This document shows positions 6,637 through 23,656 of a DNA stretch of 32,000 bases, piece after piece. The notes beneath the pieces were generated by a model, which was not told where the DNA came from, did no database searches, and worked only from the letters and a program-made list of their open reading frames with translations. Source of the DNA: Gammaproteobacteria bacterium (GTDB lineage Bacteria; Pseudomonadota; Gammaproteobacteria; Steroidobacterales; Steroidobacteraceae). The first letter of the stretch is position 1, and each line of letters starts with the position of its first letter. A program made the position numbers and the translations under genes. The stretch spans positions 123-32,122 of the forward strand of contig VGVG01000004.1 in assembly GCA_016874055.1 (NCBI GenBank), read 5' to 3'.

Positions 6637-6667
6637 CCTCATTTCGCGCTAATGTTTCACCTGAGGC

Positions 6668-8067: not shown

Positions 8068-9222
8068 TTACTGAGCGGGCGTCAGTCGAAATAGCTTTCC
8101 AGTCGACTCGGACAATACGTACAGCGCGCCGTCTGAACCCTCGCGTACGTCACGCACGCGTCCCAACCCGCTAATCCGTTCTTCGCTCGTAACGGTGTCA
8201 CCATCAAGGGTGAGCCGAATGAGCAATTGCTCGCGCAAAGACCCGAGGAAGAGACTGCTGCGCCACTGTGGAAACAGCGTGCCGGTGTAGAAGCTAAGTC
8301 CGGACGGTGCGATCGACTGCGGGAGCCAGATTTTAAGCGCTTTCGGAATATCCTCGCGCTCGGTGCCCTGACCGATCGCACGACCAAGACCGTACGTTCG
8401 TCCGTGAGTGATCAAAGGCCAGCCGTAATTACGACCCGAGCGCAGGATGTTAAGTTCATCGCCGCCTTGCGGCCCATGCTCAGTTGCCCATAACTCACCG
8501 GTACGTGGATGGATGGCGGCACCTTGCACGTTGCGATTGCCGTAAGTGAAGATCTCAGGCATCGCCCCGTCGCGCTTGGCGAACGGGTTGTCTGCGGGAA
8601 TTCCGCCTGTCTCCGTAATGCGCATCACGCCACCGAGATGGTTGCTGAGATTCTGCGCGTCGTCCTGACGACCACGATCGCCGAGCGTGACGAAAAAATG
8701 ACGCTTACGATCGAAGACGAGTCGCGAGCCGAAGTGTTGTCCTGCGCTCGCCTTAGGTTTCTGAGAGAAGATCACCTGCACTTCAGAAACGCTGCAATCA
8801 TCACCTTGGCATGAGAGTCGACCCCGGGCAACGTCCGTGCCCACCTCGCCGTCCGCACCAGCTGAATAGGACCAAAAGATCACTTGGTTATTACGGTAAT
8901 CGGGGTGACTGACGACGTCTAATAACCCGCCCTGACCGCGCGGCGTGATCGGTGGTAACCCCGATACCGGGCGTTCGAGCAGTCTACCCTCACGCATAAC
9001 ACGAAGATTGCCCGCCTTTTCCGTAACCAGAATCAAGCCATCGTGGAGAAGCGCCACGCTCCACGGTAGAACTAGACCGCTCGCAAGCGTGTCGATCTTC
9101 AGGGTGTATTGTTCGGTCTTGATCAACGCGTCTTGGGCCAAAGAAAACGGTGTAACTGAAATGGAAAAGATCGTCAAAAAGATGAATTTTAACTTTCTAA
9201 CCGAACCGAAACCTGAGAACAC
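8068..9222 (-). CDS. PQQ-dependent soluble sugar (aldose/sorbosone) dehydrogenase, YliI-like
   Basis: Signal peptide, beta-propeller repeats and the hallmark GRNYGWPLITHG. GTG 9222 has AGGAGG 6 nt upstream. Confidence 0.85.
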   Translation of the reverse strand: MFSGFGSVRKLKFIFLTIFSISVTPFSLAQDALIKTEQYTLKIDTLASGLVLPWSVALLHDGLILVTEKAGNLRVMREGRLLERPVSGLPPITPRGQGGLLDVVSHPDYRNNQVIFWSYSAGADGEVGTDVARGRLSCQGDDCSVSEVQVIFSQKPKASAGQHFGSRLVFDRKRHFFVTLGDRGRQDDAQNLSNHLGGVMRITETGGIPADNPFAKRDGAMPEIFTYGNRNVQGAAIHPRTGELWATEHGPQGGDELNILRSGRNYGWPLITHGRTYGLGRAIGQGTEREDIPKALKIWLPQSIAPSGLSFYTGTLFPQWRSSLFLGSLREQLLIRLTLDGDTVTSEERISGLGRVRDVREGSDGALYVLSESTGKLFRLTPAQ

Positions 9223-9250: not shown

Positions 9251-9265
9251 TTATTCCCATTCAAT
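9251..9265 (-). repeat. att-like copy of the guaA 3' terminus (distal island end)
   Basis: TTATTCCCATTCAAT versus TTACTCCCATTCAAT at 22058-22072, in the same orientation. On the minus strand it still reads IEWE-stop. The 12-mer TCAACGACTTAC lies nearby at both sites (9293-9304 and 22036-22047). Confidence 0.6.
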
Positions 9266-9426
9266 ATATGCCTAATTTATAATCCAATACTTTCAACGAC
9301 TTACCAGCTCGATATATTTTTGTGTAAGTTTTGTGCAAGTCATAAAAGGCATCTATGTTGAGAGCAGTGTGGGTGACGATGGATGTTGGGAGTATAGACG
9401 TTACACACCGTGCAAGCGGCAACGTC

Positions 9427-9672
9427 CTAGCTGGCGATCGCCTGTTTGCCTTTTTCGGTGAGCATCACCGAATCAACCATAACGTTCACAGCCACCATTT
9501 CGCTCTGCTGTAAGGACTCGACTACTTCCATAACCTCGCTCCAAGTAGCACCACACTGCTCCTCGAAGTGATTTGCGATATCTGCCCCGCTAACGCCTTC
9601 CAAACAATAGGGCGATCGTTCGGGTGAATCACGCACGAATCGGAGTACGGATTCACTAGTTATCTTACTCAT
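9427..9672 (-). CDS. small (81 aa) hypothetical protein, possible winged-helix DNA-binding protein
   Basis: ATG start 12 nt after the stop of the upstream ORF, in an AT-richer segment. The VLRFV...GVSGADIANHF...EVVESLQQSEMV...LTEKGK layout resembles a stand-alone wHTH. No family recognised. Confidence 0.45.
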   Translation of the reverse strand: MSKITSESVLRFVRDSPERSPYCLEGVSGADIANHFEEQCGATWSEVMEVVESLQQSEMVAVNVMVDSVMLTEKGKQAIAS

Positions 9673-9684
9673 ACCACGTAACCT

Positions 9685-10077
9685 CTACGCTAGCCGACCC
9701 AACAGCTCCACGTACGTTGATTGCGCCCTGATACTTTGCTCATGCATGGAGTCAGGCCCTGCTTCCAGCGTCATTTGACAGCGATAGGTTTCAAAGTCGA
9801 TCAAGCCTGAGACCACTGCCATATTGATCAACAACAATGCGCTGTGAAGATCACGTAACAAGACATACTGTGTTCGCTGAACGTCGCTCCAACCATTAAA
9901 TATCGTGCTAACAGCTCCGACTCGATTGCCCATAGATGCCAGCTTCAATACGCCCCATACCGCTACATTCGGCAGCAACATGTTCTGCAGTTCTAGCAAG
10001 AATTCGCGTACATCGTCTCGAACGTCATCAATATCAATAGCGCACTGCTCGCCAATAACACGCTGAATGTAGTCCAC
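9685..10077 (-). CDS. hypothetical protein (start uncertain, possibly 5'-truncated)
   Basis: The ORF is open through the junction with the truncated ROK gene. GTG 10077 sits exactly at the compositional junction, and the first ATG is at 9981. The N-terminal CAIDIDDVRDDVREFLLELQN vaguely recalls the last helix of PqqD/RRE-type domains. No family recognised. Confidence 0.35.
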   Translation of the reverse strand: MDYIQRVIGEQCAIDIDDVRDDVREFLLELQNMLLPNVAVWGVLKLASMGNRVGAVSTIFNGWSDVQRTQYVLLRDLHSALLLINMAVVSGLIDFETYRCQMTLEAGPDSMHEQSIRAQSTYVELLGRLA

Positions 10078-10301
10078 GGACAGCCGCCGACGCCAATCTG
10101 CCGCACAGGCGCGGTCTGCAATTCCACCTCGGTCACAAGCTCGCGTACCACGGAGAGCGCGGAGGGGTAATCGCTCGGAGTCGCGACTCGCCTGCGCACA
10201 ACCGGCGTACCCTGCGCATCGAGCGCCGCAACCTCGATCTTCGTGCCGCCGAAATCGACACCGATCAGCGGCGGGACTTTTGGATCTGACTCGAGTGACA
10301 T
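10078..10301 (-). pseudogene. ROK-family sugar kinase (NagK/glucokinase-like), N-terminal ~75 codons only
   Basis: MSLESDPKVPPLIGVDFGGTKIEVAALDAQG...ATPSDY...VRELV...QIGVGG is the ROK N-terminal ATP-binding region. Similarity ends abruptly at ~10078, where AT-rich DNA begins. Confidence 0.7.
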
Positions 10302-10376
10302 CCCGGCGACTACACCCGGCGAACCGCCGCGCGACGCTCGATGCATCGGGCGGCAATTCAGGCCGAGGCTATGACG

Positions 10377-13300
10377 TCAAAAGGTCTTCGAGAGCGTGGC
10401 ATACACGTATCTGCCCGTGGCGTTCGCCAGGCTGCCAAAGTAGCCGAAGTTCGTCGAAGTGATCGGCGGGTCTTTATCTTCGATGTTGCGAACGCCGAGA
10501 CGCAGCGAAGTACGGTCAAGCAGATCGTCACGACGACGGAAGTCGTACTGGCCGTACAAGCTCACAGTCGTCCAGCTCGCAACCTCAAACAATTGGCCGT
10601 TGACCGCAGCCGGGCCGGTATCGAACACTGAACCCACATAATTGGCGAATAAGCCGGCTCGCCATTGCTTTTCACGCCAGGTAAGCGAAGCCGAACCGCG
10701 CCATTCCGGATTGCCGTTGACACCAATCTGATTGCCGGCCGCCGTGACCACGATGCCCGAGCCCAAGCGCCCTGCATTGTTGGCCGCGATGACCTTGCCG
10801 GCCATCTCGGTGGGCTGCTGCTCGAACTTGGTCAGCTTGGCCGCGTTGACGGTAAAGGTGAATGAACCCAGCTTGGTGCGCCGCAGCTCGTAGCGCAGGC
10901 TGGCGTCGAAGCCTTCGAGTTGTCGCGGCGTGATGTTGAAATAGTTGTCCTTGATCTGCAGCAGCTGCCCGACACGATTCGTGCCCACGGGCGGGTCACG
11001 AACGAGATTCGGGTTGCTCTGTCCGTCGAGGCGCAGCAGGTAGTCGTACAGCAACTGCACTTGCCCGCCCTCGATACCAATGACTTCGGTTTGTTTGATC
11101 GACCAAAAGTCGACCGACAGCGACACCTTGCCCGCCGCGTCTGGCAAGAACGTCGGTTGCAGGATGATACCGGCCGAAAGGTTGTCAGCTTCTTCGGGGC
11201 CGAGACCCCGGTTGCCTGAACGAACCTCGATCGTGCTCGCTCCCGCGCAGGTCACGGCATTGATTCGGCAGAAGGCGAAATCGGTACGTGTGTTGCTGAC
11301 CTGAGTGCCCGAGCTATAGAACTGCGGCAAGTTTGGCGCACGGAAAGCCTGCGACGCCGAGCCGCGCAGCGCGAGCCAATCGGCGATCGCCCAGTTGAGC
11401 GCAATCTTTGGTTTGGTGACAGTACCGAAATCGGAATAACGCTCGGTGCGACCCGCGAGCTGCATCTCCACCGATTTCACGAGCGGAATCTCCATCTCAG
11501 GCGATACCACCGGCACTGCGAGTTCGAGATAGCCAGAAATGATGGAGCGATGCGCACGCACATCCGGCGACGGGCTCGCGCCCATCACGTCCGTGCCGTA
11601 AGTGATGTTGCTAACGACATCGGTGTACTTGATCGTACCGTCGAGTCGCGGATCACGATTATCGACATAGCTCTCGCGACGCACTTCGACACCCGCAGCG
11701 ATACCGACGTCACCACCCGGCAACGCCCGCACGTCGGGTCGCGAGGCTTTCAAATCCCACATCGACAACGACGTTTCGCTGATGCGATTTACGCCGACCA
11801 GAAAGCCCCTGATGGTGGCGGCGTCGCTCGGGGTCGTATCGGCACCCGAATACAGCAACTGGTTGCCGCCATTGAAGGGGTTGTAGGCATCAGGCGTTGA
11901 CTTGGCGAGCGCCTGCTGGAAGAGCGTATTGCTGACCGCGTTGGTGGTGAAATCGTCGGTCTTCGCCCAGGAATAGACGAGCGCAGATTCCCAGTCGTAA
12001 CCCCACTTCTGACCACGCAGGCCGGCAAGCAGGCGATAGCTGTCGTCGGTGACTTCGTAGACACGCGGGCCGGTGTCCACCGGTCGATAAGTCGTAAGGC
12101 GCAGGGGCAACCCCGTGGTCGGCACGTTCACGAGGTTCGGCAAGCGGTTCGGGTTGGCGACGCCATTGATGGTGGTGGCACCGAGCGGATTGTAATAGTT
12201 CGAAGCCGGGATGGAGATCACCGCGCTCGCCAGTGGCGCCGACTGCTCGCGAAGTCCCGAGAAGAACGCGCGGTAGTAACCGGCCTCACCAAAGAATTCG
12301 AGATCACCAAGATCACGACTGACCGTGGCGAAGGCGTTATATCGATCGACAGCGCCTTTCAGGGTGCGATCCGCATTCTCGTTGTAGCGCAGTTCGCGAT
12401 CGACGGCGCCGGTAATCGTGCCGGCACGCAGACAAAGATTGCTGTTGTAAGTGGTACTGCTGCAGCCTGCCGCCGTGTTGGAAATCGGTTCGACACGAAA
12501 AACGCCGGACGTGGTGAGCGCCGTCGTCCCCTGACGAACTGCCACCGTGCTCGGAATGACCGTGAAAGAACCCCAGGGCGACGAGGTGCTGCGGTTGTCG
12601 AATGCCGTGTCGCCCGCCCAAGGAGTATCGGCAACTTTCCAACGATGATCTTCGCTCGCGGCGTAGTCACGATCAGTCGCCAGCAGCCGATTACGCGTGT
12701 AGTACCCGGCATAGACCGCAAGACGCGTTCCGTTTTCGAAACGAGTTCCGGCCTTGAGGTTCACCGTGGTTTCACGGTGCGGGGTGCCCTCGGAGCCACC
12801 GTACTGCGCTTCCATACGCAGGCCTTCGAAATCAGACTCGAGCACGGTGTTGACGACGCCCGCGACGGCATCAGTACCGTAAATGGCCGCAGCACCGTCA
12901 CGCAGGACCTCGACGCGCTTTACGCCCGCGACTGGAAAAGCATTGGTATTCGCAGTCTGCACCGGTACGAAATTTTCGGTCTGCGTCCCCGGGGCGGGGA
13001 CCACGCGACGACCGTTCAGCAACATCAAAGTATTGCCAGTGCCGAGGCTGCGCAGGTTGATGGACGAAGTGTCGCCACGCGCATCGTTCAAGTTGCCCGT
13101 CGTACGCGCTTCCTGAAAAGCCACATCACCCGCCTGCGGAATCGAGCGGTAAAGATCGTCACCCGAAACCGCTGCGGTCGCGATGATGTCTTCTTTGTCG
13201 ACGACGGTGACCGGCAGCACCTCGGTGATCTTGGCGCCGCGAATCTGCGAGCCGACGATGACGACCTCGACCAGTTCTTCTTCGGTGCCTGCTTGCGGCG

Positions 13301-13403
13301 CAGCACTTTGTTGTGCGCTGGCGGCGGCTGTGAAGATCAGACTCGCCGAAAACACGAGGCTGCGGATCATTTGGGCGCGGGATGTTACGAACTGCGAGGG
13401 CAT
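10377..13403 (-). CDS. TonB-dependent outer-membrane receptor
   Basis: Signal peptide ending AASAQQ, a TonB-box-like ELVEVVIVGS, a plug domain (INLRSLG...TLMLLNGRR), a long beta-barrel and a C-terminal aromatic residue (..LSKTF). ATG 13403 has AAGGAG 11 nt upstream. Confidence 0.9.
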   Translation of the reverse strand: MPSQFVTSRAQMIRSLVFSASLIFTAAASAQQSAAPQAGTEEELVEVVIVGSQIRGAKITEVLPVTVVDKEDIIATAAVSGDDLYRSIPQAGDVAFQEARTTGNLNDARGDTSSINLRSLGTGNTLMLLNGRRVVPAPGTQTENFVPVQTANTNAFPVAGVKRVEVLRDGAAAIYGTDAVAGVVNTVLESDFEGLRMEAQYGGSEGTPHRETTVNLKAGTRFENGTRLAVYAGYYTRNRLLATDRDYAASEDHRWKVADTPWAGDTAFDNRSTSSPWGSFTVIPSTVAVRQGTTALTTSGVFRVEPISNTAAGCSSTTYNSNLCLRAGTITGAVDRELRYNENADRTLKGAVDRYNAFATVSRDLGDLEFFGEAGYYRAFFSGLREQSAPLASAVISIPASNYYNPLGATTINGVANPNRLPNLVNVPTTGLPLRLTTYRPVDTGPRVYEVTDDSYRLLAGLRGQKWGYDWESALVYSWAKTDDFTTNAVSNTLFQQALAKSTPDAYNPFNGGNQLLYSGADTTPSDAATIRGFLVGVNRISETSLSMWDLKASRPDVRALPGGDVGIAAGVEVRRESYVDNRDPRLDGTIKYTDVVSNITYGTDVMGASPSPDVRAHRSIISGYLELAVPVVSPEMEIPLVKSVEMQLAGRTERYSDFGTVTKPKIALNWAIADWLALRGSASQAFRAPNLPQFYSSGTQVSNTRTDFAFCRINAVTCAGASTIEVRSGNRGLGPEEADNLSAGIILQPTFLPDAAGKVSLSVDFWSIKQTEVIGIEGGQVQLLYDYLLRLDGQSNPNLVRDPPVGTNRVGQLLQIKDNYFNITPRQLEGFDASLRYELRRTKLGSFTFTVNAAKLTKFEQQPTEMAGKVIAANNAGRLGSGIVVTAAGNQIGVNGNPEWRGSASLTWREKQWRAGLFANYVGSVFDTGPAAVNGQLFEVASWTTVSLYGQYDFRRRDDLLDRTSLRLGVRNIEDKDPPITSTNFGYFGSLANATGRYVYATLSKTF

Positions 13404-13505
13404 GGTCGACAAGCTCCTTGTCTTTTTCAGGGGGTCAACGGGAAAAAACAAATATCCCCGTTCCCGTTAATATTGTCCATACCATAAGGACTCGCGGAGA
13501 GCGCA

Positions 13506-15254
13506 ATGAACTTCAGCTGTGCCATCGTCAAAGCCCGGTTCGGCACGCGAATTTGGGCAGCGCTTGCGCTGTCCCTGACCCTCTGGGCTGGTGGTCCGCT
13601 CGCCGAAGCCCAGCAACAGTCGCTGCTCGAATACCCGAGCATTCATTCGCCACGAGTGGGGCTGCAGGGCATGGTGGTCAGCCAAAATGAGACGGCGAGT
13701 GCGATTGGCGCCAAGGTGCTCGCCGAGGGTGGTAATGCCATCGATGCAGCCGTCGCCGTGGGCTTTGCCCTTGCGGTCACCCTGCCGCGTGCCGGCAATA
13801 TCGGCGGCGACGGCTTCATGACGGCGTATCTTGCCAACGAAAAGAAAGTCACCGTCATCGATTTTCGCAGCGTGGCGCCGCTTACCGCCAAGCTCGACAT
13901 GTTCGTCGATGCTCGCGGTAAAGAACGTCCGGAAGCCTCGGTCGGCTATCGCGCGGCGGCCGTACCCGGGACCGTGGCTGGACTCTGGATGGCCCACCAA
14001 AAATATGGGCTTAATCCTTGGGGCAAACTGGTGGCCCCTGCGACGGCGCTCGCTCGCGATGGGCTGGTGCTGAGCGGAGACGAAGCGTTTGTTTTCGGCT
14101 GGGGTCGCAAACGTCTCGAAGCAAGTGCCACGGCCAAGGCTACGTTCTTCAAAGCAGACGGTAGCGCCTACAAAGCCGGCGAGCGCTTGCAGCAACCACA
14201 GCTTGCTTGGACGCTGGAGCAAGTTGCCAAGGGTGGTGCAGAGGCTTTTTATCGCGGCGAAGTCGCCACGCGCATCGAGGCGGACATGCGGCGCAATGGC
14301 GGTCTCATCACGCGCGAAGATCTGGCGGCGTATCGCACCATCGAGCGCACTCCGTTGGTGGGCACTTATCGCAGTACCACCGTCTATACGCCCCCGCCCG
14401 CCAGCGGCGGTGCGGCCTTGCTGCTGATGCTCAATATTCTCGAAAACTTTGATCTCAGCCGCATGTCGGCAGGTTCTGCCGAGTCATTGCATCTGCTCGC
14501 CGAAACCATGCGACTCGGTCATCGCGATCGCGTCCGTCATTTCGGTGATACCGCTTTCGCCAAGGTGCCGCTGACGGGTATCACCTCCAAAGGCTACGCT
14601 GCCGAACGCGCCAAGCTCATCAATCCACGCCAGGCCAATGACGACGACGACATTCGCGCCGGCGATCCTTTTGCCTATGAAAGTCCAAGCACAACGCACT
14701 ACTCGGTGGCTGATCGCTTTGGCAACGTCGTATCTGTGACCTACACGCTAGGATCGGATTTTGGTTCGGGCGCGATGATCGACGGCACCGGTATCCTGCT
14801 CAACAATCAGATGAACAATTTCAGTCATGAGCGGGAATTTCGTGCGGCAGAAAGCAATGACCCCGAACCTGCGAACGCCATGCGCCCGGGCAAACGCATG
14901 ATGTCGACCATGATGCCGACGCTGGTTTTTCGTGACGGCAAGCCTTGGCTTGCGCTCGGCACACCGGGCGGCGGCCGCATCATCAATACCGTGCTGCAAG
15001 TGCTCGTGAATGTCGTCGACTTCCGCCTCAATATCGATGAAGCAACCCATCAGGCAAGGATTTCGCAAGGCGATGGTCCGCTCGAAGTAGAACCGAACTT
15101 CAACCCCGATACCTTGGAGTTGCTGCGCAAGAAAGGTCATCGCATCAAACAGAGCGATACCATGGGCAGCGCGCAGTCGATTGCACTCGAGAACGGTTAT
15201 TTCTTTGGCGCGCCCGACCCGCGCCGACCGGGTGCGGCCGCCATCGCTCCCTGA
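13506..15254 (+). CDS. ggt: gamma-glutamyltransferase
   Basis: Signal peptide and the autoprocessing/catalytic site PSTTHYSVADRFGNVVSVTYTLGSDFGSG, plus GTPGGGRIINTV. ATG 13506 has GGAGAG upstream. Confidence 0.95.
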   Translation: MNFSCAIVKARFGTRIWAALALSLTLWAGGPLAEAQQQSLLEYPSIHSPRVGLQGMVVSQNETASAIGAKVLAEGGNAIDAAVAVGFALAVTLPRAGNIGGDGFMTAYLANEKKVTVIDFRSVAPLTAKLDMFVDARGKERPEASVGYRAAAVPGTVAGLWMAHQKYGLNPWGKLVAPATALARDGLVLSGDEAFVFGWGRKRLEASATAKATFFKADGSAYKAGERLQQPQLAWTLEQVAKGGAEAFYRGEVATRIEADMRRNGGLITREDLAAYRTIERTPLVGTYRSTTVYTPPPASGGAALLLMLNILENFDLSRMSAGSAESLHLLAETMRLGHRDRVRHFGDTAFAKVPLTGITSKGYAAERAKLINPRQANDDDDIRAGDPFAYESPSTTHYSVADRFGNVVSVTYTLGSDFGSGAMIDGTGILLNNQMNNFSHEREFRAAESNDPEPANAMRPGKRMMSTMMPTLVFRDGKPWLALGTPGGGRIINTVLQVLVNVVDFRLNIDEATHQARISQGDGPLEVEPNFNPDTLELLRKKGHRIKQSDTMGSAQSIALENGYFFGAPDPRRPGAAAIAP

Positions 15255-15640
15255 CGCGACGCGGATACGAGCAGACACTCGACCTCCGCCCGTCTTGGCG
15301 CCGAGGGCTGAGCCCCCGCTCGTGTCACCGACAGGGCAGCCGCAGCATTTGCAAATATCACGGCGTTTCGCAGCAGCTTACCCTCGGCGAGCGCGGTCGC
15401 GAGCGCCGCATTGAATACATCCCCCGCTGCCGTCGTGTCGAGTGCCTTTACTTTGAACCCCGGGACGAGTCGTGCACCATCGACAGCGACCACGAAGGCG
15501 CCACGCGCACCCATGGTAATGATGACTGTGGCGATACCGCTCGCCCGCAAGGCTTCGGCCGCTCTCGCCGCGCTCGCGTCGTCGGCAACACGGATCCCGG
15601 TCAGCAGCTCGGCCTCGGTCTCGTTAAGGGCCGCGTAACG
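15197..15640 (-). pseudogene. rbsK: ribokinase (PfkB family), C-terminal half only
   Basis: NETEAELLTGIRV...ITMGARGAFV...VKALDTTAAGDVFNAALATALAEG...ANAAAALSVTRAGAQPSAP aligns to the C-terminal ~145 aa of RbsK as I recall it. The N-terminal half is absent, and the frame is closed by a TGA at 15680-15682 in AT-rich DNA. Confidence 0.8.
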
Positions 15641-15768
15641 CAGAAGCAGGTTGAGGAATATCTGAAGCGCAATCAGGGCTCAAAGATAACTCTTAAGTCG
15701 TCCAAAAAATGACGCTGTCATTACTAAAGCGCGACGACACATAGAGCGTTACCCTTTTGGCGGATAAA

Positions 15769-16257
15769 ATGTATAGATCTACCAGAGATTTCATAAACGC
15801 AAGGAAGCAATTTACGGCTCCGTACATTCCTGAACATCTACCTAGTGTTCGTCGAATCGGCGGTGGTCAGCCTCAGTTATGCTATGTCAACGCAACGGAT
15901 TATATGGACCTTCAGGTAGCCAATGGGGTTGAGGTAGCTATACGAAGCGGATGGCTCGTGACTCCCTACGACAAAAAGACGAACTCATCGCTCATCATTC
16001 AGCATTGGTGGAACGCTGTGAGGAATAACGGATACGTTGATACCACTCCGCTTGATGATACAGCAGAGTATGTTGAAGACTGTGCTTTGAAAAAATTCTG
16101 TGTGCGCAATGACGGAAAGCTAAAGACTCATGTAGCGCACAGCTTGCTCTACAAAGATGGCATTTTCTCAGTCATCCTTGATCCTGAGAAAGGCGAACTT
16201 GCAAAGCTCGATGAATTGCGCACAGAATTTTTATACGCACGGAAATGGATTGCCTAA
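15769..16257 (+). CDS. hypothetical protein (162 aa from the ATG, 166 aa from TTG 15757)
   Basis: AT-rich ORF with GGCGGA upstream of ATG 15769. Convergent with the small recombinase gene, with the stops 2 nt apart. No recognisable motif. Confidence 0.5.
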   Translation: MYRSTRDFINARKQFTAPYIPEHLPSVRRIGGGQPQLCYVNATDYMDLQVANGVEVAIRSGWLVTPYDKKTNSSLIIQHWWNAVRNNGYVDTTPLDDTAEYVEDCALKKFCVRNDGKLKTHVAHSLLYKDGIFSVILDPEKGELAKLDELRTEFLYARKWIA

Positions 16258-16259
16258 AG

Positions 16260-16823
16260 CTAGACTAACTCCACCGCCCGCCGTTTCATCTCATCATTCA
16301 CATCGATGTAAGCCTGCGTGATGGCAATGCTGCGATGGCCAGCCAAACTGGCTAACACACGCACTCCCACGCCTTTGCTTGCGAGTGTGGTGATGAAGGT
16401 GCGGCGTCCGCTGTGGCTACTGGCACCGGCTATGCCCGCCCGCCTGTATGTCCAGTAGAACCACTGCGTGAGAGTGTTCGCCGTGAATCCTGACTTTTTA
16501 GCAGTAGGAAACAGCGGCAGATTCGCGGCTCTGCTCGTGCTGCGAAGATAGTGAGCAATTTCGTCGCGTAGTTTGTCGTTCAACAGCACTACTCGCCCAA
16601 ATCGTCCCTTTGTCTGCGTGGCTGCGAGGCGTACCTCGGCTTTAATCGTGCCGTCCTCAGTGCGTACATCACATATCCGCAGTGCTGCGATCTCGCCCAC
16701 ACGCATGCCACTCCAAAAACTCATCAGCACTAACAGCCGATTGCGTGCGGCGTGCTGTTTTGTCGCGACATACCGCAGCACTTGATCCAGTTCTGCTTGG
16801 GTGAGTGTTTTTGCTTGTGCCAT
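16260..16823 (-). CDS. small (187 aa) tyrosine recombinase, catalytic domain only (FimB/FimE-size class)
   Basis: The catalytic residues are present: GMRVGEI (Arg I), HSGRRTF (HxxR) and GHRSIAITQAYI (His/Tyr). The N-terminal LTQAELDQVL...HAARNRLLVLMSF layout resembles small invertase-type recombinases. ATG 16823 has GGAGG 6 nt upstream. Confidence 0.85.
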   Translation of the reverse strand: MAQAKTLTQAELDQVLRYVATKQHAARNRLLVLMSFWSGMRVGEIAALRICDVRTEDGTIKAEVRLAATQTKGRFGRVVLLNDKLRDEIAHYLRSTSRAANLPLFPTAKKSGFTANTLTQWFYWTYRRAGIAGASSHSGRRTFITTLASKGVGVRVLASLAGHRSIAITQAYIDVNDEMKRRAVELV

Positions 16824-17210
16824 CTGTGCCTCCTGACCAAATAAATGTAGTGGATTAATGTTGTGTTCTTTTCTCCTCTTATTTCCTACCTCAAAAGACC
16901 TTCCGTAAATCAAGAGGTTATAAGCGAAGAAAAGAGTTTCGCTGTTGTATTTGGTTATTTAGCAAGTAACTTGCCCAACCCTACGCGGAATTAGCCCGCC
17001 CCGCGTAAAACACGCTATAACGCCGTATAACGGGCTTTGCAGCGTGAGTCGCTACCCAAGCCAGCCCAAGCAGTGCTGCGTTCGTTGTAGGGCTTTATAC
17101 GCAGGGCTTACTGTTGGATTGCCCAATTTCCCCTGCTGTCCGCTGTTTTCTGCGGTGTAGTTTTCAAGCAGGACGGAGATCTCCAGTGCTGGTGATTTGT
17201 TCTAACCAGC

Positions 17211-17296
17211 GTGTTCTATCGTGTTTTCCAGTGTTTCCGCAGTGTTCGATTGTGTTTCCAGTGTGTTCTGTATGTTTGAGATATCTGTGTTTGATC
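17211..17296 (+). repeat. phased iteron-like GTGTT(T)YC repeats
   Basis: GTGTT starts at 17211, 17221, 17231, 17242, 17252 and 17263 (10-11 bp spacing), with another at 17287. The array lies in a 510-bp non-coding stretch between the recombinase and Rep-like genes. Confidence 0.6.
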
Positions 17297-17365
17297 GAAG
17301 CAGAGTGAGTTATGTGATGTGAGCGAGAAGTAAGTGATGGCATTATTTACGGACACGATTAAGCA

Positions 17366-17389
17366 ATTAAAGCCGAGTGCGGCTTTAAT
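17366..17389. other. perfect 10-bp stem / 4-nt loop hairpin just downstream of the Rep-like gene
   Basis: ATTAAAGCCG-agtg-CGGCTTTAAT, 35 nt past the Rep-like stop (17424). There is no strong U-tract, so it may be a terminator or an origin/nick-site hairpin. Confidence 0.35.
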
Positions 17390-17423
17390 GCGAGATAGCA
17401 AGAGGCAAACGAGGCCGATAATG

Positions 17424-17951
17424 CTATTTGACTAATGTCCAAAGCACATTGTCGCTGTGCTTTGAGCCTGTCTCTTTCGTTATGTATTCCAGCCAGCCCG
17501 AGTCGGCAATGTCGACTTCGTGCTGCAGGTCTATGTCCGCGACGTGCTGTTTGGCTTGGCGGACAAGGGAATCAAACTGATTGAACTTAAACTGAGGCGG
17601 CAGATTGCCGATTGCGAAGTGTATGTGCAGGTTTTTGCCGCTACATTCGCCCTCCAACACTGGCAAGTACGACAGCGTTTTGCCGTATTTCTCGGCGGCA
17701 TATCGACCAAACACGACACGATTAAGTTTTTGCTGGAATCGGCGTGTGGTGCGTTCGACATCGGCACGAGTAATGCGGCGGTAATAAGTACCACACGGCG
17801 TTTGGACGCGGACAGACTGCTTGAGTGTCAGCGTCAATGCTAATGGATGCGTTTTGGCGAATGTCGTCAGCCAAAGTCGCGTCGCGGCTTTCGTAGTTTG
17901 CTGCGTATTTGGCACATAGCCGACGCGGCTGCGTATGTCGTTCAACTTCAT
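17424..17951 (-). CDS. minimal HUH-superfamily rolling-circle replication initiator-like protein (175 aa from the ATG, 181 aa from TTG 17969)
   Basis: Three RCR motifs in canonical order: motif I ALTLTLK (FLTLT-like), motif II NLHIHFAIG (HUH plus hydrophobics) and motif III LEYITKE (YxxK). It is adjacent to an iteron-like array. Identified by motifs only. Confidence 0.55.
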   Translation of the reverse strand: MKLNDIRSRVGYVPNTQQTTKAATRLWLTTFAKTHPLALTLTLKQSVRVQTPCGTYYRRITRADVERTTRRFQQKLNRVVFGRYAAEKYGKTLSYLPVLEGECSGKNLHIHFAIGNLPPQFKFNQFDSLVRQAKQHVADIDLQHEVDIADSGWLEYITKETGSKHSDNVLWTLVK

Positions 17952-17968
17952 ACAGTTATTTAGTCGCA

Positions 17969-17998
17969 ACCAAATAAAACTAGTTATTTTTATTTGGT
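17969..17998. other. AT-rich 11-bp-stem hairpin between the 151-aa ORF and the Rep-like gene
   Basis: ACCAAATAAAA-(8 nt)-TTTTATTTGGT. It lies between stop 18004 and the Rep-like start region. It may be a terminator, an operator or an origin element. Confidence 0.35.
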
Positions 17999-18003
17999 AT
18001 GTG

Positions 18004-18459
18004 CTAACTGATTGATTGGATCGGCTTTATTGCTGGCGGCGCTGCGGCTTTTGGCGTCTGCCGTGCCTTCTTTATCGCCAGCTTAGCTCTCTCCTGCTGC
18101 GCCATCGCCCGGTACTGCTTGGCTTGCTGGGTGAGAGCTTGGATGCGCTGCTGTTCGGGTGTTTTGGGTGCTTGGGTTTCTGGCACATAGCGACGCACAG
18201 TGGAGATACGTTTACGACCGTAGAGGTGTTCCGCCGCTCGCTGTGCATCCGCAGCACTTTCGGCGTGGATCAGCGTTCTAAAGTTGCCAATGCCAGGCAC
18301 GCTGACCGACACCTCAAACGCTTTGTATCTGCCGTCAATTTCGTAAAGCCGCATACAGATATTTAGCGGCAGTACAGTCGGCTGGGTTTGGCTGTCAACC
18401 GAAATTGCCTTTTCTTTTGTTCTGGCAAATTTCGGTAGGGATAGTGAAAAACTGAACAT
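18004..18459 (-). CDS. hypothetical protein (151 aa, alternative ATG at 18354)
   Basis: ORF upstream of and co-directional with the Rep-like gene. The C-terminal third is Q/A/K-rich and coiled-coil-like. No recognisable family and no clear SD at either ATG. Confidence 0.4.
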   Translation of the reverse strand: MFSFSLSLPKFARTKEKAISVDSQTQPTVLPLNICMRLYEIDGRYKAFEVSVSVPGIGNFRTLIHAESAADAQRAAEHLYGRKRISTVRRYVPETQAPKTPEQQRIQALTQQAKQYRAMAQQERAKLAIKKARQTPKAAAPPAIKPIQSIS

Positions 18460-18498
18460 AGTGTTGCTGTGCGTTCAACAACAGAGGACACGCACACG

Positions 18499-18936
18499 AT
18501 GGCTATGTTGGCTTCACTAAAATTGACGCAGGCTAAAAAGCCCGCACAGATTCCGCCCGTTCAAGTAAGACGGAATAAACTCGTCAAACGCCTACACGAG
18601 CAGATTGAACTGGCTCGTGCTGAACAGGGCGGCAGCACCTACAGCCCCAAACGCTACAAGACTGTGACGGATGAAGAAGGAAACCGCCGCACGATTGAGA
18701 TCGCCAAACGCATCAAGCCGTGGTGGTTTGTGGGCGTGGAAGGTCGGCTCTGCCTCAATGTCCGCTACGGAGCCAAGATGCTGGAGTTGGCGAAGGGGAA
18801 AACTGCAGTGGAGATTGCCACGCAGCAAGACCTCGTACCCACGCTGGAACTGATCAAGGCCGCTGTGGAAGCAGGGGAGTTAGATCAGCAGATGAACGCC
18901 GCCTCCAACACGCTACGCAGTGGGTTCAAACGATGA
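18499..18936 (+). CDS. hypothetical protein (145 aa)
   Basis: ATG 18499 has GAGGA about 10 nt upstream. It is divergent from the 151-aa ORF with only a ~39-bp spacer. Basic N-terminus (VQVRRNKLVKRLHEQIELA). It looks like a conserved-hypothetical type, but I cannot name the family. Confidence 0.5.
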   Translation: MAMLASLKLTQAKKPAQIPPVQVRRNKLVKRLHEQIELARAEQGGSTYSPKRYKTVTDEEGNRRTIEIAKRIKPWWFVGVEGRLCLNVRYGAKMLELAKGKTAVEIATQQDLVPTLELIKAAVEAGELDQQMNAASNTLRSGFKR

Positions 18937-19069
18937 TGGCAAGATACACTGCTTAACGCTCTATTGCGTTACCGTAGCGACAAGGGAAATGGCGGCGTAT
19001 TTCGTAAATTAAGGCGAATATGCGGGAGTAACCAAGTCGAAAACGGGGCACTAACGCCGTTCAAGTGTG

Positions 19070-19108
19070 AGCGGCTGGCAGGCATAGCTAACATGCTTGT
19101 CAGCCGCT
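19070..19108. terminator. hairpin between convergent genes
   Basis: AGCGGCTGGCA-(17 nt)-TGTCAGCCGCT (10/11 pairing) between the 145-aa ORF (+) and the integrase relic (-). Confidence 0.3.
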
Positions 19109-19501
19109 ACAGTTTGGGGACAAGGATACCGTCCTTGTACTCATAATCTGCCAAGGCGTTGCTCAGCATTTTATCGAATGTGGTGTGGTAGTAGGTGCGT
19201 TCGATTTGCGAGATGCTGGTGCCGCACATCTCCGCAACCGCAGCAGGTGGTAGGTTGCTATTCACCCGCTTTGTAATGAAATAGTGACGGAAGCTGTACG
19301 GGACGAGATTGCGGTTTCCTAAGCTGATCCGCGCCTTCTCCATTAGCTTGTCGAAGTGGTAGCCGATCGCTCTTGGCGTGAGTGGCGTCTTTCCGTTGTA
19401 GCTGAAGACGAGCTTGTCGCTCAGCTCTCTTAGCACCGCGATCTCTGTCAGTTTTCTTGCCTTCGCGATGTACTGAAGATAACTGCTAAAATACCTGTGT
19501 T
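19107..19501 (-). pseudogene. tyrosine integrase, C-terminal ~130 codons only
   Basis: LVPYSFRHYFITKRV (HxxR box) and MCGTSISQIERTYYH (catalytic Tyr box). This is the same C-terminal pattern as the 450-aa integrase (YHCRHVYISYRL / VGTSLNQIEKTYDN). The upstream part is replaced by the IS21-type element starting at 19502. Confidence 0.7.
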
Positions 19502-19845
19502 TGCTTAGCGACAATTAACTTGGCCGGTTGACGACAATTGTCTTGGCCGGTGGGCACTGCCTCCGGTAATCGTCGTTGCAGATCCTCAAAGATCGTTGTC
19601 GCTGTCAGCCCCGGCGCAGCCCGCAGCCTCGGCAGGATCTCGCTCTCCCACAGCCCCTCGAGCGGATCGCGGCGCGTCCGCCACTGCCGGCGCGGCTGCT
19701 GCGACGGCAACACCGCTGCATGCTCGATCCGACGGGCTGTCCGCACGCTGATGCCTACCTTCGCCGCCGCAGCTTCCTGCGGCAGCGTGTTCCGTAACTC
19801 CTTGTATCGCTTCACTTGTTGGTCCGTTATGCGCTGGCCGGGCAT
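19486..19845 (-). pseudogene. istA: truncated IS21-family transposase gene (istA N-terminal HTH region)
   Basis: MPGQRITDQQVKRYKELRNTLPQEAAAAKVGISVRTARRIE...RRQWRTRRDPLEGLWESEILPRL matches the IstA N-terminus as I recall it. ATG 19845 has GGAGAG upstream. The frame runs out through the terminal repeat. Confidence 0.7.
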
Positions 19846-19972
19846 CGTGACTCTCCTCGTTCCCTTCGAACGAGAAATCACGACCCAACCCATCGCTGCA
19901 AGCGCCCCCGGCGGCAGCGCCCACCGGCCAAGACAATTGTCGTCAACCGGCCAAGTTAATTGTCGCTAAGCA
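19502..19972 (-). mobile_element. 471-bp IS21-family deletion derivative (miniature element)
   Basis: 54-bp perfect terminal inverted repeats (19502-19555 and 19919-19972) with TG...CA termini. Each end carries two tandem sub-repeats GACAATT(A/G)(A/T)CTTGGCCGGT, as in IS21-type multi-repeat ends. The interior is high-GC and encodes only the start of istA. No flanking target-site duplication (cctgtgtt versus gcggcata). Confidence 0.8.
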
Positions 19973-20276
19973 GCGGCATACCTTCTAGCAAACTCACGGT
20001 TTCTCTGATTCGTTACAGACTGGTATAACCTCGGGTCTAACCAACTGAAACAGGAATCTTTGTTCCATAGATCTAACGAATGGTCAGACATCTATTCTCT
20101 TACCCAACCTTTTACTCACGTTACTCACTCCTCTTTTAGGCAATAGGTCTCCAATTGGGCTCAACACCCATCAAGTACTGAATACAGGCATCTACGAAAG
20201 GATTTCGGAAAACACCAAGATCTGAGAAACCCGAGCACAACCAAGCCGCAAACGGCAGTGGTCGCGAACTATTCAG

Positions 20277-20299
20277 AGAGGCAGAGCACTTCTGCCTCT
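20277..20299. terminator. 9-bp-stem hairpin downstream of the integrase gene
   Basis: AGAGGCAGA-gcact-TCTGCCTCT followed by T-rich sequence on the + strand. It lies in a 408-bp AT-rich region with no ORF in the supplied ORF track. Confidence 0.3.
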
Positions 20300-20382
20300 A
20301 GATCTATTTATAAATTTTCGATAGGCAAAAGGCTGACAAACGCTTATTTTTTACTCTTGGTAAGTGAAGCACCGCCTAGCGG

Positions 20383-21735
20383 TTATTTTTTCTTGCCAAT
20401 ATTTTTTTGAATTTCTAAAGAAGCAATTTCAGCCTGAATATTGTCGTAGGTTTTCTCAATTTGATTGAGCGAGGTGCCTACTGCTTTTGCGACCATATAC
20501 GGATTCTTGTCGTCAAGCAGACGGTACGAAATATAAACGTGGCGGCAATGGTAAAGATCAAACCACTCAAGCCCCTTTAACTTCAATTGGGCACGCAATC
20601 CTCGCTTGTAGAAGTCATAGAACTTTCCGCGAGCAGCGGAGTGAGCAGGATAAATCTTGCTTCGCTTGGATCCGTCCTCAAACATCGCGAAGACGAAGTC
20701 ATCTTCTCGCTTGTGAATCGCGTGCTCTTTTAACCAACGCAAAAGATGATTCACCTTTTGTCCGTTGTCGTAGGTTCGAGCTGAAATTGTAGTGTTCCGA
20801 TCTTTGCTTTTCTTGCTTGTTTCTGCGCGAACGCGAATCGTCACAATTTGACTTTCAGCGTCTATGGTGAGGTCTTTGTTTCGCAAGCCGAACAGTTCAC
20901 CTGATCGGAGTCCGCAATTACTGATCGTCAGAAAAGCCTGTCGAACCATACTCTTGTAGTAAACGTCTTTCGGCGAATCAGATTCTTTCGGAGAGGACCA
21001 AGTATTCAGAATTCGGACTACTTGGTTGTACTGCTCAAAAGTTACACGCTTGCGTTTAGGTTCAGGCGTTTTGAACGTGTCCCAACGTGGTATTGCTCTT
21101 TCAGATGATAGTTTTTTCTCATACGCCCATCTGAACGCTGCTCTGATCTGTAACAGTTCATCACGTATCATCGAGAGCGATGCTTGGTTTTTAGTTTTGC
21201 CTCTGACTTCTAACTCGCGCCAAGGCAAGTATTGATTCCATAGGTTCCCATCCACAGTACTTACTTTAGTATTGAGGGCAAGACTCAGCTTTTGGTGAAG
21301 AAATCTTTTTCCGTGCCCAAGACGACAGTGAATGTTTTTCAACGTGGAGGGTCTTTTCAGTCCTCTGCGTACTTGATCGTCCAAATGCTTGCCGTACTGA
21401 CGAAACACATCACCAAGATTCAAGCTCTGAATCTGATGACCACTTTTTATCTCTGAGAGCAATTCTAAGTAACGATCTTCGGCAAGTTTTTTCGCCTCCC
21501 TTAAAGAGTTCGTTTTCAACGACTCTTTGTAGTCGTTTTTCTTGCCCTTCACGCGAAACTTGAAATACCAAACTCCACGCGCGACGGCAGCTGATAGATC
21601 ACCGCCCTTCGGTCGTAGTTGATCGCCGCGACGAAAAAGAGTCAGTTTTCGACTCCCCACCGTAAGTTCGTGCTTCTCGAGGAACGAGAACCCCTTGCCG
21701 TACCTAGACTTTGCGGCGTTGCTAGAGCGACCCAA
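20383..21735 (-). CDS. int: tyrosine-type site-specific integrase (island integrase, 450 aa)
   Basis: GLRSGELFGLR (Arg I), YHCRHVYISY (HxxR) and LNQIEKTYDN (Tyr). It has a long N-terminal arm-binding-type region, is about 40% GC, and lies 320 bp from the guaA stop. Start is TTG 21735 (no upstream ATG; GTG at codon 26 is possible). Confidence 0.85.
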   Translation of the reverse strand: MGRSSNAAKSRYGKGFSFLEKHELTVGSRKLTLFRRGDQLRPKGGDLSAAVARGVWYFKFRVKGKKNDYKESLKTNSLREAKKLAEDRYLELLSEIKSGHQIQSLNLGDVFRQYGKHLDDQVRRGLKRPSTLKNIHCRLGHGKRFLHQKLSLALNTKVSTVDGNLWNQYLPWRELEVRGKTKNQASLSMIRDELLQIRAAFRWAYEKKLSSERAIPRWDTFKTPEPKRKRVTFEQYNQVVRILNTWSSPKESDSPKDVYYKSMVRQAFLTISNCGLRSGELFGLRNKDLTIDAESQIVTIRVRAETSKKSKDRNTTISARTYDNGQKVNHLLRWLKEHAIHKREDDFVFAMFEDGSKRSKIYPAHSAARGKFYDFYKRGLRAQLKLKGLEWFDLYHCRHVYISYRLLDDKNPYMVAKAVGTSLNQIEKTYDNIQAEIASLEIQKNIGKKK

Positions 21736-21878
21736 TGCCTTCCCTACCCTCGTGGTTGCGTTCGCTTAAATGCCGTTTCCGTGTCTTCTAGAGGCACTTT
21801 CGAGTCCCTCCGAAAGTTTTTACTGTAAAAACTTGTCATCCTCGCGGGACAAAGCGGGAAATGCTTAGACGGCACAGA

Positions 21879-22017
21879 TAGGTAGTAACTTTAGTCTCGC
21901 CTCGGTCAGAGGCTACCTATTTTCACCGAGAGATTCGAGCACTGTAGGTAGTTCTCTAGGTAGTTGGATAGATGTAACTCGTTGACTTTATTTGAGTTAG
22001 GTAGTTTCTAGGTAGTT
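21879..22017. promoter_or_regulatory. array of TAGGTAGTT repeats (candidate integrase/Xis arm-type sites)
   Basis: TAGGTAGTAA at 21879-21888. TAGGTAGTT at 21945-21953, 21957-21965, 21998-22006 and 22009-22017. An inverted copy GCTACCTAT at 21912-20. All lie between int and the guaA stop. Confidence 0.55.
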
Positions 22018-22057
22018 TTATAAAAACCTTATAAATCAACGACTTACGTTCTTTACA

Positions 22058-22072
22058 TTACTCCCATTCAAT
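22058..22072 (-). repeat. att core at the guaA 3' end (proximal island junction)
   Basis: TTACTCCCATTCAAT (the last 4 codons plus the stop of guaA). It is repeated 14/15 at 9251-9265. Confidence 0.6.
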
Positions 22073-23656
22073 CGTCGCTGGAGGTTTACCGCTGATGTCG
22101 TATACCACACGGCTCACACCCTTGACTTCGTTGACGATGCGACGCGAACAGATGTCGAGTAATTCATAGGGCAGATGCGCCCAGTGCGCCGTCATGAAAT
22201 CAATGGTCTGGATGGCGCGTAACGCGATGACAAGATCGTGACGTCGACCGTCACCCGTCACACCCACTGACTTCACGGGCAGGAACACCGCGAATGCTTG
22301 ACTCGTCTTATTATACCAACCCGACTTGCGTAGCTCTTCGATAAAAATATGGTCGGCGAGTCGAAGCGTGTCGGCTGCAGCTTCAGTAACTTCGCCCAAA
22401 ATTCGAACTCCGAGACCGGGACCTGGGAACGGATGTCGATTCACCATCTCGGCAGGCAGTCCGAGCTCGACACCGATCTTCCGGACCTCATCCTTGAAGA
22501 GCTCGCGTAGCGGCTCGACGAGCTTGAGTTTCATTTGGGCGGGCAGTCCGCCCACGTTGTGATGACTCTTGATGACGTGCGCCTTGCCGGTCTTGCTACC
22601 AGCCGATTCGATGACGTCGGGGTAAATCGTCCCCTGCGCGAGAAATTCGACGCAGTCGCGGGCATTACCGGCCGCGAGCTTCTTCACCGCGTCATCGAAT
22701 ACCTCGACGAAAAGTCGGCCGATAATTTTGCGCTTGGCTTCGGGGTCACTCACACCCTTAAGCTCACTGAAGAATCTATCAGCAGCGTTCATCCGTATAA
22801 CTCGCACCCCGAGATTACGGGCAAAGATATCCATCACGGCGTCGCCTTCGCGATGACGCAAGAGGCCATGATCGACGAATACGCAGACCAGCTGATCGCC
22901 GATGGCACGATGCAACAAGGCCGCGACGACCGACGAGTCGACGCCGCCTGAAAGCCCGAGTAACACCTTCGATTTGCCGACCTGCTCGCGCACGCGCTCA
23001 ATCGCGTCGTCAATGATATTGCCCGGGTTCCAGCTCGCATCGCAGCCGCAGATATCGTGTAGGAATCGGGCGTATATACGCTCGCCCTGCCTCGTGTGGG
23101 TCACTTCCGGATGGAACTGCAGGGCATAGAACCGTCGCGACTCGTCCGCCATACCGGCGACGGGTACATCGCTCGTCGATGCGATCGCAGAAAATCCTGT
23201 GGGTAAGGCGACGACCTGATCGCCGTGGCTCATCCAGACGTCGAGCAGACCGTCACCCTCGGCGTTAACGCGATCTTCGATGCCGCGCAGAAGCGCTGAA
23301 TGATTACGAGCACGAACTTCGGTATAGCCGAATTCGTGGATGGCACCCGGCTCGACGCGACCGCCGAGCTGCGCCGCCATGGCCTGCATACCGTAGCAAA
23401 TGCCGAGCACAGGGGCGCCAAGCTCGAAAACAGCTTTGGGCACTACCGGAGCATTTTTCTGAGTAACAGACTCAGGACCCCCAGAGAGAATGATGCCCTT
23501 CGGTTTGAACGCACGGACATCGATATCGCGGACATCCCAGGCGTGGATCTCGCAGTACACACCGAGTTCGCGCACACGACGCGCAATTAGCTGAGTGTAT
23601 TGCGAGCCGAAGTCGAGGATGAGAACGCGGTCAGCGTGAATGTCGCGGGCAATCAT
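22058..23656 (-). CDS. guaA: GMP synthase (glutamine-hydrolysing)
   Basis: Full-length 532 aa with the GATase domain ([25 protein letters not shown]), the ATP-PPase P-loop ([10 protein letters not shown]) and the C-terminal ...KPPATIEWE. Confidence 0.97.

Follow-up and report, generated by a model that had tools for sequence, protein, structure and literature searches.

A probable integrase-borne island with mosaic content at the guaA 3′ end of a freshwater Steroidobacteraceae-like bacterium

The 3′ end of guaA occurs twice, 12.8 kb apart, on contig VGVG01000004.1 (GCA_016874055.1), of which we analysed a stretch of 32,000 nt (the window, to which all window coordinates refer). We conclude that positions 9251–22072 of the window are very probably a genomic island that was put into the last guaA codons by site-specific recombination, and we hold with high confidence that the short repeats at its two ends are the attachment (att) cores of an integrase-mediated insertion into this gene. 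The kind of feature is ordinary, namely an integrase-borne island at a well-known hotspot. What is new here is a family of guaA-specific integrases together with its attP, the convergence of that family on the core used by the island GIsul2, and evidence for a recent transfer between species. Related loci and contigs are cited below by L numbers.

Boundary repeats and the empty site

The + strand of the window reads TTATTCCCATTCAAT at 9251–9265 and TTACTCCCATTCAAT at 22058–22072, in the same orientation and with 14 of 15 nucleotides identical. The second of these is the reverse complement of ATT GAA TGG GAG TAA, the terminal codons and stop of guaA. We designate it the attR core (22058–22072, minus strand); it comprises the final four guaA codons (IEWE) plus the stop, reads ATTGAATGGGAGTAA on the gene strand and matches the family core GAGTGGGAGTA. 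The other copy, designated the attL core (9251–9265, minus strand), is a displaced guaA end, ATTGAATGGGAATAA, that lies 28 nt upstream of the start codon of a dehydrogenase gene. Because the bases flanking the two 15-mers differ, the repeat is exactly 15 nt long, with one mismatch. No further match to the 15-mer was found in the 32 kb with up to 2 mismatches on both strands, and dinucleotide shuffles scanned at the same threshold gave a mean of 0.04 matches, with two or more matches in 0 of 100. The repeat and its coordinates had been reported in the first-pass annotation and are confirmed, as is its chance estimate of about 0.003 for a near-perfect copy: our analytic estimate for the 15-mer with at most one mismatch is also about 0.003.

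The target gene, guaA (22058–23656, minus strand), is a 532-aa open reading frame (ORF) with GATase, NAD_synthase and GMP_synt_C domains, the reading frame of which is preserved, and guaB (23667–25178) adjoins it upstream. On the far side of the island lies a glucose/sorbosone dehydrogenase-family gene (8068–9222, minus strand; Pfam GSDH PF07995, E 1e-119), which in the empty site described below lies next to guaA on the chromosome. Judged by this domain match, the ORF fits its earlier label of pyrroloquinoline quinone (PQQ) dehydrogenase, PQQ dependence being, as we take it, a general trait of the GSDH family. Searches of the window for tRNA genes and Rfam families found none.

Relatives were collected by scanning reference genomes with the dehydrogenase protein, which led to metagenome-assembled genomes (MAGs) of freshwater Steroidobacteraceae-like bacteria. 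One MAG contig from Lake Tanganyika (L002, VGUJ01000011) carries guaB, guaA and the dehydrogenase gene in succession, and after them the genes that follow in the window as well. Its guaA stop is separated from the dehydrogenase ATG by 23 nt and its guaA end is present once, as in an empty site; this is the arrangement that the first-pass annotation had anticipated for an island-free relative. Upstream of the L002 dehydrogenase gene there is only the genuine guaA end and nothing similar to window positions 9266–9304, and the 9251–9265 copy in the window occupies the position equivalent to the L002 guaA stop (28 versus 23 nt before the start codon). L002 thus shows neither of the two arrangements named beforehand as contrary to an island, that is, an island-free relative retaining the 9251–9304 sequence upstream of the dehydrogenase gene, or a guaA and dehydrogenase gene that are never neighbours.

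Two further Lake Tanganyika contigs (L044 and L052) bear on the point of crossover. Over the 117 nt of guaA that precede their core they share 99.1% identity with L002 but only 82% with the window, and both contigs run on past guaA into a sister island. Comparison of the L044 junction, ...GATCGAGTGGGA|GTAATGTAAAT..., with the corresponding L002 sequence, ...GATCGAGTGGGA|ATAGTCACAAT... (GAGTGGGA|GTAAtgtaaat in L044/L052 versus GAGTGGGA|ATAGtcacaat in L002), suggests that chromosomal sequence turns into element sequence directly after GAGTGGGA. By these sequences the L002-type species occurs both empty and occupied. In the window the single core mismatch sets GAG TAA on the guaA side against GAA TAA on the distal side, and since every attP has GAGTA, the G would come from the element and the A from the chromosomal end that was displaced. 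Between the window and L044, int is 96.7% identical, compared with 82.9% for guaA and 85.4% for guaB of the two hosts; a near-identical integrase gene in diverged hosts indicates that the integrase module recently moved between species. The alignment of L044 with the window extends as far as 20292 and no further.

The integrase family and its attachment site

Adjoining guaA, as the first-pass annotation had noted, is a tyrosine integrase gene, int (20383–21735, minus strand), which lies 322 nt from the guaA stop on the same strand and encodes an intact 450-aa protein (Int450). Int450 has a weak, partial match to Pfam PF00589 and no NCBIfam match. Its homologues span 33–100% identity and form a coherent family, in which the catalytic residues R277, K308, H396, R399 and Y430 are invariant across an alignment of 16 sequences and the second His/Trp catalytic position sits in a conserved GTS motif. 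An AlphaFold model (pLDDT 85) places a four-strand sheet and a helix at residues 20–97, followed by helical core-binding and catalytic domains. Foldseek matches of this model comprise the Tn1549 integrase (residues 82–397), XerH, Cre and lambda Int; among them are recombinases without an arm-binding domain (Cre, XerH and Tn1549 Int 82–397), and the aligned query residues are not reported. The extra N-terminal domain of the model may be the binder of the arm repeats described below.

Family loci were assembled from context look-ups and a metagenome scan, and 38 of them cover the complete int-proximal arm. The guaA 3′ end and core GAGTGGGAGTA (at most 1 mismatch) lie directly upstream of int in 33 of the 38, whereas in the other five (L018/L019, L021/L022, L042, L046 and L048) the core has non-guaA DNA carrying arm repeats on its far side, so that it stands between non-guaA flanks in an attP configuration. 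These targeting data, along with the empty site in L002, uphold the earlier proposal that the repeats bound an island, and the intact attP that the first-pass annotation expected in other elements is found as the same core between non-guaA arms in L018/L019, L021/L022, L046 and L048. The sequence GAGTGGGA is present in 37 related loci, the window form being GAATGGGA, and members of the family are found at guaA in dozens of metagenome contigs from freshwater and soil. We regard Int450 and its homologues as a previously uncharacterised family of guaA-specific integrases with a newly defined att site, carried by elements of an ordinary kind.

The L021 contig of 10,108 bp has ends that overlap by 119 nt, the k-mer size of the assembler, and thus assembles as a circle of about 10 kb. 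Besides an int gene of the family and an intact attP, it encodes an AAA protein and a cytosine methylase paired with a restriction enzyme of the MvaI/BcnI type, and it may represent the free or excised form of a guaA-targeting element that carries a restriction-modification system. L041 holds an entire 7.3-kb element, in which both cores are present and both arms carry arm repeats, and L004, a Steroidobacteraceae MAG, has a canonical attL in the order two arm repeats, ATAAGTCGTTGATT, 19–20 nt, core, chromosome. The L042 integrase is a distant family member (33% identity); on its 610-kb contig an attP-like site with its own arm repeats, core and P arm lies away from guaA at 5700–6001, and could be part of a tandem array, a secondary site or a large replicon. 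A plasmid or virus origin was also considered and rejected: tblastn with Int450 gave no match among 72,556 PLSDB plasmids (pAB3, with GIsul2, included) and only matches below 25% identity among INPHARED phages, and IMG/VR held no relative of Int450.

The int-proximal P arm (21736–22057, minus strand) contains arm-type repeats and two sites, H1 and H2, that resemble the consensus of integration host factor (IHF). The arm repeat AACTACCTA is present in four perfect direct copies (22017–22009, 22006–21998, 21965–21957 and 21953–21945), with a fifth copy at 21887–21879 that has one mismatch and an inverted copy, CTACCTA, at 21913–21919 on the + strand. The 12-mer TCAACGACTTAC lies at 22036–22047 (H1), 10 nt from the core, and at 9293–9304, 27 nt from the core, and a third copy, inverted and with one mismatch, sits at 21974–21985 (H2) between two pairs of arm repeats; the three matches observed in the window compare with 0.16 expected. 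We take WATCAANNNNTTR to be the IHF consensus, TTGAT-type motifs being read in this way on the opposite strand. The window (AATCAACGACTTA), L020, L018, L021 and L042 all match WATCAANNNNTTR perfectly at the homologous position.

A core-anchored alignment of the close family members (L020, L043, L018, L021, L046, L048, L050 and L044) has one order of elements in common. Read through attP, it begins with two arm repeats, GTAAnnnnTTGATT, about 18 nt, TTGAGTGGGAGTA(A/G) and (A/T)GTAAA; after about 8 nt there follow TAAGnnnTTGATTTATAAGG, two arm repeats and an inverted TTGAT-type motif, and then two more arm repeats, one inverted arm repeat and int. Compared with this order, the 12-mer is a conserved match to the IHF consensus, present in each attP arm and outside the duplication, with 22036–22047 as the core-proximal IHF-like site of the P arm and 9293–9304 as its P′ counterpart. 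The first-pass annotation had presented the 12-mer as flanking both copies of the guaA end; its positions and its distances of 10 and 27 nt from the cores stand, but it belongs to the arms as an IHF-like site and not to the duplication. From consensus and conservation we predict that IHF and the integrase bind these arms, which would make Int450 a heterobivalent, lambda-like recombinase.

These observations can be assembled into a mechanism. An element, or elements, with the 450-aa integrase would have carried an attP holding a copy of the guaA end, with a core of the form ...ATTGA(A/G)TGGGAGTA..., and strand exchange within ATTGAATGGGA would have linked the element to guaA. The IEWE-stop end of guaA would now be supplied by element DNA (GAG TAA, then tgtaaag...), and the original chromosomal end (GAA TAA, then aatcc...) would have been displaced by 12.8 kb to its place 28 nt before the dehydrogenase gene. 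During the reaction the N-terminal domain of Int450 would bind the AACTACCTA arm repeats and its C-terminal domains would bind and cut the core, with the 12-mer and its inverted copy, matching WATCAANNNNTTR, located where DNA bends would be needed. The island would have become mosaic through tandem or successive insertions, internal deletion and capture, in the course of which the P′ arm repeats would have been lost and a 5-kb chromosomal TonB-receptor/gamma-glutamyltransferase (GGT) module enclosed by truncated kinase genes on either side. As a result, the resident integrase is likely to be impaired in excising the island.

Mosaic interior, distal arm and variability of the interval

The composite character that the first-pass annotation had assigned to the island is evident from its contents, which include a second, truncated integrase, an insertion sequence derivative and a chromosome-like block. 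Downstream of int is a 410-bp tail (19973–20382, minus strand), of which 20120–20358 is conserved with the region downstream of int in L018 (tblastx). It is followed by an IS21-derived element resembling a miniature inverted-repeat transposable element (MITE; 19502–19972, no strand assigned) with 65-nt terminal inverted repeats (TIRs) that are 97% complementary, TG...CA ends and an internal ORF that matches the N-terminus of IS21 transposases (NF033546, E 3e-11). Its flanks, ...CCTGTGTT and GCGGCATA..., differ, so that there is no target-site duplication, which we attribute to deletion or recombination next to the element. Truncated at the MITE is the C-terminal third of the second tyrosine integrase (19107–19514, minus strand), which covers only positions 80–170 of the PF00589 profile and is 44% identical to Int450 over the Y-x-x-R-H...GTS...TY region and 30–45% identical to family members.

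A segment of cargo of about 50% G+C and about 3.5 kb (15757–18936) follows, with orf166 (15757–16257, + strand), a 217-aa XerC/D-like tyrosine recombinase (16260–16913, minus strand), the unknown ORFs orf181 (17424–17969) and orf151 (18004–18459), both on the minus strand, and a DUF6641 protein (18469–18936, + strand). The 217-aa recombinase, near the DUF6641 gene, consists of a catalytic domain only and is XerC/D- or invertase-like (PHROG 216). The chromosome-like block (10060–15650; 5.6 kb, 60–70% G+C) holds a TonB-dependent receptor gene (10377–13451, minus strand) and the GGT gene (13506–15254, + strand), and is flanked by an N-terminal fragment of a ROK kinase gene (9993–10346, minus strand) and a C-terminal fragment of a pfkB kinase gene (15197–15550, minus strand). 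Homology (80–82% at the nucleotide level) to a receptor/GGT pair on the chromosome of relatives (L097/L098) is confined to 10374–15264, and there the pair has different neighbouring genes; the closest chromosomal homologues are about 88% identical at the protein level. The confinement of homology to this interval and the different neighbours in relatives indicate that the block is captured chromosome-like DNA. An exact-protein look-up of the GGT found no second context of the kind that a recent intragenomic duplication would leave. Beyond the block are about 0.8 kb of distal cargo, including orf81 (9427–9672), and then the remnant of the P′ arm (9266–9672 with the adjacent cargo and orf81, minus strand) and the attL core. 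No cargo is shared with related elements beyond int and att.

Several findings weigh against our reading of the region as an island placed in guaA by an Int450-bearing element or elements. The IHF-like site of the P′ arm is 27 nt from the core, compared with about 18 nt in intact relatives, and no arm-type repeats are present in the P′ arm of the window, where a scan allowing 2 mismatches gave chance-level matches in the wrong context. By comparison, two arm repeats were found in 6/6 intact P′ arms examined (L018, L021, L046, L048, L041 and L004). An arm without arm repeats and with a shifted IHF-like site suggests that the two island ends may stem from different elements, and the lack of integrase arm repeats makes the present island probably a decayed or hybrid remnant and not an intact mobile unit. 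No excisionase or recombination directionality factor (RDF) was recognised among the island ORFs in Pfam, PHROG and NCBIfam scans, small unannotated ORFs being present. Neither an empty site from the same population nor a circular junction for this exact island was found by exact-protein look-ups of the window dehydrogenase, guaA, int and GGT, and all same-population contigs recovered in this way carry the island. In L001 and L006, a DUF1415 gene, a 78-aa gene and either AhpCF or DUF885 lie between guaA and the dehydrogenase gene, and it is not certain which arrangement of the two genes is ancestral in the host lineage. The order of events within the island is itself a reconstruction.

A simple tandem array was considered and rejected, as there is no middle (third) guaA-end copy in the window at up to 2 mismatches. 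Taken together, the absence of a middle core, a MITE that lacks a target duplication, a second integrase cut short and a degenerate P′ arm fit best with a history of successive or tandem insertion and subsequent internal deletion and capture, the outcome being a hybrid with probably impaired excision; we consider this reconstruction somewhat more probable than not.

The interval between guaA and the dehydrogenase gene differs among relatives, which suggests that the guaA end is a hotspot in the host lineage and that its ancestral state is not unique. Small integrase-less elements lie at the guaA end in L008 (4299–6889), L009 (570–2492) and L005 (about 126). They carry Fic, VapBC, MNT/HEPN and HigBA-like toxin-antitoxin modules, arranged in tandem in L009, and are bounded by long degenerate copies of the guaA 3′ end (about 28–63 codons); these longer copies suggest that the same gene end also serves a second type of element whose attachment identity is longer. 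In L001 (688–700), L006 (6130–6141) and L010 (2278–2289) a DUF1415 gene begins within or directly after the guaA stop, and as its start reads through the GAGTGGGAGTGA core region, the integrase target in those genomes overlaps the start of a downstream gene.

We also noted that same-population assemblies break repeatedly inside the island near 10550 and 19183: L023 and L024 begin at 10550, L017 and L030 stop at 19183, and L037 stops within the receptor gene. These recurrent breaks hint at strain variation or at a second receptor/GGT copy elsewhere in the genome. In L002 the dehydrogenase gene, 23 nt past guaA, is probably co-transcribed with guaBA; the island of the window puts 12.8 kb between them, and a promoter scan of the P′ arm found no sigma-70-like promoter on the right strand for the dehydrogenase gene. 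Outside the island, a second AT-rich patch (5400–7200, 43% G+C) holds a gene for a 254-aa P-loop kinase/cytidylyltransferase-like protein (5486–6250, minus strand), between a PspC-domain gene and the gene at 7230–8045. The interval concerned measures about 1.85 kb in the window and about 0.58 kb in L002, a difference that makes the patch look like another small insertion.

Related systems, alternative explanations and significance

The first-pass annotation had described the guaA 3′ end as a target of GIsul2-type islands, which agrees with the published site: integration of GIsul2 takes place at GAGTGGGA, at the 3′ end of guaA, where the GIsul2 integrase both excises and integrates the island (PMC9376610), and the elements termed PIMEs share the GIsul2 attB (bioRxiv 10.64898/2026.01.12.698999). 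The island described here resembles GIsul2 and the related PIME, BcenGI2 and IncP-island elements, integrative mobilizable elements found at the guaA 3′ end in Pseudomonadota, in having the same guaA core, an integrase gene beside guaA, short direct repeats, a preserved reading frame and variable cargo. We took the GIsul2 sequence for comparison from pAB3. GIsul2 Int is of the P4 type (Arm-DNA-bind_3, Phage_int_M and Phage_integrase domains), whereas Int450 lacks Arm-DNA-bind_3 and Phage_int_M, and BLASTP aligns the two proteins with 25 bits and 23% identity over 88 aa. In tblastn searches with GIsul2 AlpA, RepA, RepC, TrbJ, TrbK, TrbL and ResG, no match in the window had E <0.09, and no GIsul2 backbone gene was found among the island ORFs in the Pfam, PHROG and NCBIfam scans. 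Unlike GIsul2-type elements, the island has no alpA, repA/C, trbJ/K/L, ars, ISCR2 or sul2; its hosts are uncultured freshwater Steroidobacteraceae-like bacteria and its cargo consists of the TonB receptor/GGT pair and unknown ORFs. The earlier remark that its content is very different from that of GIsul2 is thus well founded. Membership of the GIsul2 family was rejected because the integrases are unrelated beyond the superfamily and no backbone gene is present; on these comparisons the window element resembles GIsul2 in target and outcome and falls outside its family.

Other systems are similar in part. Lambda and the P4/CP4-57-like islands at tRNA genes likewise have a core and arms with direct arm repeats, sites that match the IHF consensus and an integrase with an extra N-terminal domain of the kind that the Int450 model predicts, and lambda-type integration, too, duplicates and restores the 3′ end of its target gene. 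Sequence similarity to the lambda and P4 types does not go beyond the superfamily, the target in the window is a protein-coding gene, no Xis or RDF was recognised, and the IHF and arm sites are predicted ones. Further integrators at the guaA 3′ end are ATE-1 of Trueperella, streptococcal integrative and conjugative or mobilizable elements (ICEs and IMEs), Mesorhizobium ICEs and the E. coli phage vB_EcoP_ZX5 (PMC5704250, PMC4701971, PMC8627217, PMC9782041), which are likened to the window island by target only, their host phyla and cargo being different. The MITE inside the island shares with IS21-family MITEs its TG...CA termini, long TIRs with internal repeated motifs and the remnant of an IS21 transposase N-terminus, but differs from them in lacking a target-site duplication.

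Three other explanations were weighed against insertion of one or more Int450-bearing elements followed by rearrangement. That the whole island is one intact and currently mobile IME-like element, with the receptor/GGT pair as bona fide cargo and both ends functional, is unlikely in our view, though it is the most credible of the three. It draws on an intact int with complete catalytic residues, on cores that are 14/15 identical, on the IHF-like site that the distal arm retains and on the recent movement of a sister element between species, and the identity of the island across contigs from several samples argues that there is no ongoing decay. Against these points stand a distal arm without arm repeats, compared with two in all six intact P′ arms, a truncated second integrase that abuts a MITE without target duplication, kinase genes truncated at both borders of the high-G+C block, and the failure to find an empty site or a circle in the same population.

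The shared target could also mean that we are dealing with a member of the GIsul2/PIME family now stripped of its backbone, since the target codons are the same (GAGTGGGA in GIsul2, PMC9376610, and GAATGGGA/GAGTGGGA here) and int lies beside guaA in the same orientation. We consider this highly improbable, given a P4-type GIsul2 Int that aligns with Int450 at 25 bits, the lack of any window match to GIsul2 backbone proteins at E <0.09 by tblastn, and the lack of any match to Int450 in 72,556 plasmids that include pAB3. It is likewise highly improbable that the 15-mer is a coincidence and the interval a variable chromosomal segment shaped by unrelated events. The interval does vary among relatives and much of its interior is chromosome-like, but the chance expectation is at most 0.04, the copy sits exactly at the guaA-stop position of the empty site, the core also delimits L041 and is found again in the attP of five relatives, and the flanking 12-mer matches a conserved attP feature; the empty site, the family-wide conservation of the core and the attP evidence contradict this explanation.

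Insertion into guaA by an Int450-type integrase thus remains the preferred reading, and under it the island is precisely delimited, its boundaries being real att sites, and the island parts the dehydrogenase gene from guaBA, its direct predecessor in the empty site. The att-site architecture and target specificity of an integrase family that has no curated annotation could be defined from sequence alone. The near-identical int in two lake species with housekeeping genes of about 83–85% identity documents a recent inter-species transfer. An integrase that shares its guaA core with the clinically important GIsul2 and PIMEs but is unrelated to theirs is a case of target convergence, and makes the insertion site alone an unsafe basis for inferring the family of an element. 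As a tentative extension, held with somewhat less than even confidence, we propose that Int450 represents an independent and widespread lineage that converged on the 8–11 nt of guaA used by GIsul2 and PIMEs (GAGTGGGA...), that it has its own lambda-like attP with arm repeats and three IHF-like sites, and that its elements shuttle chromosomal modules for nutrient uptake (TonB receptor and GGT) between freshwater species. If this is true, non-homologous recombinases would compete for the terminal codons of guaA, and the family would supply a well-defined and possibly orthogonal integrase/att pair.

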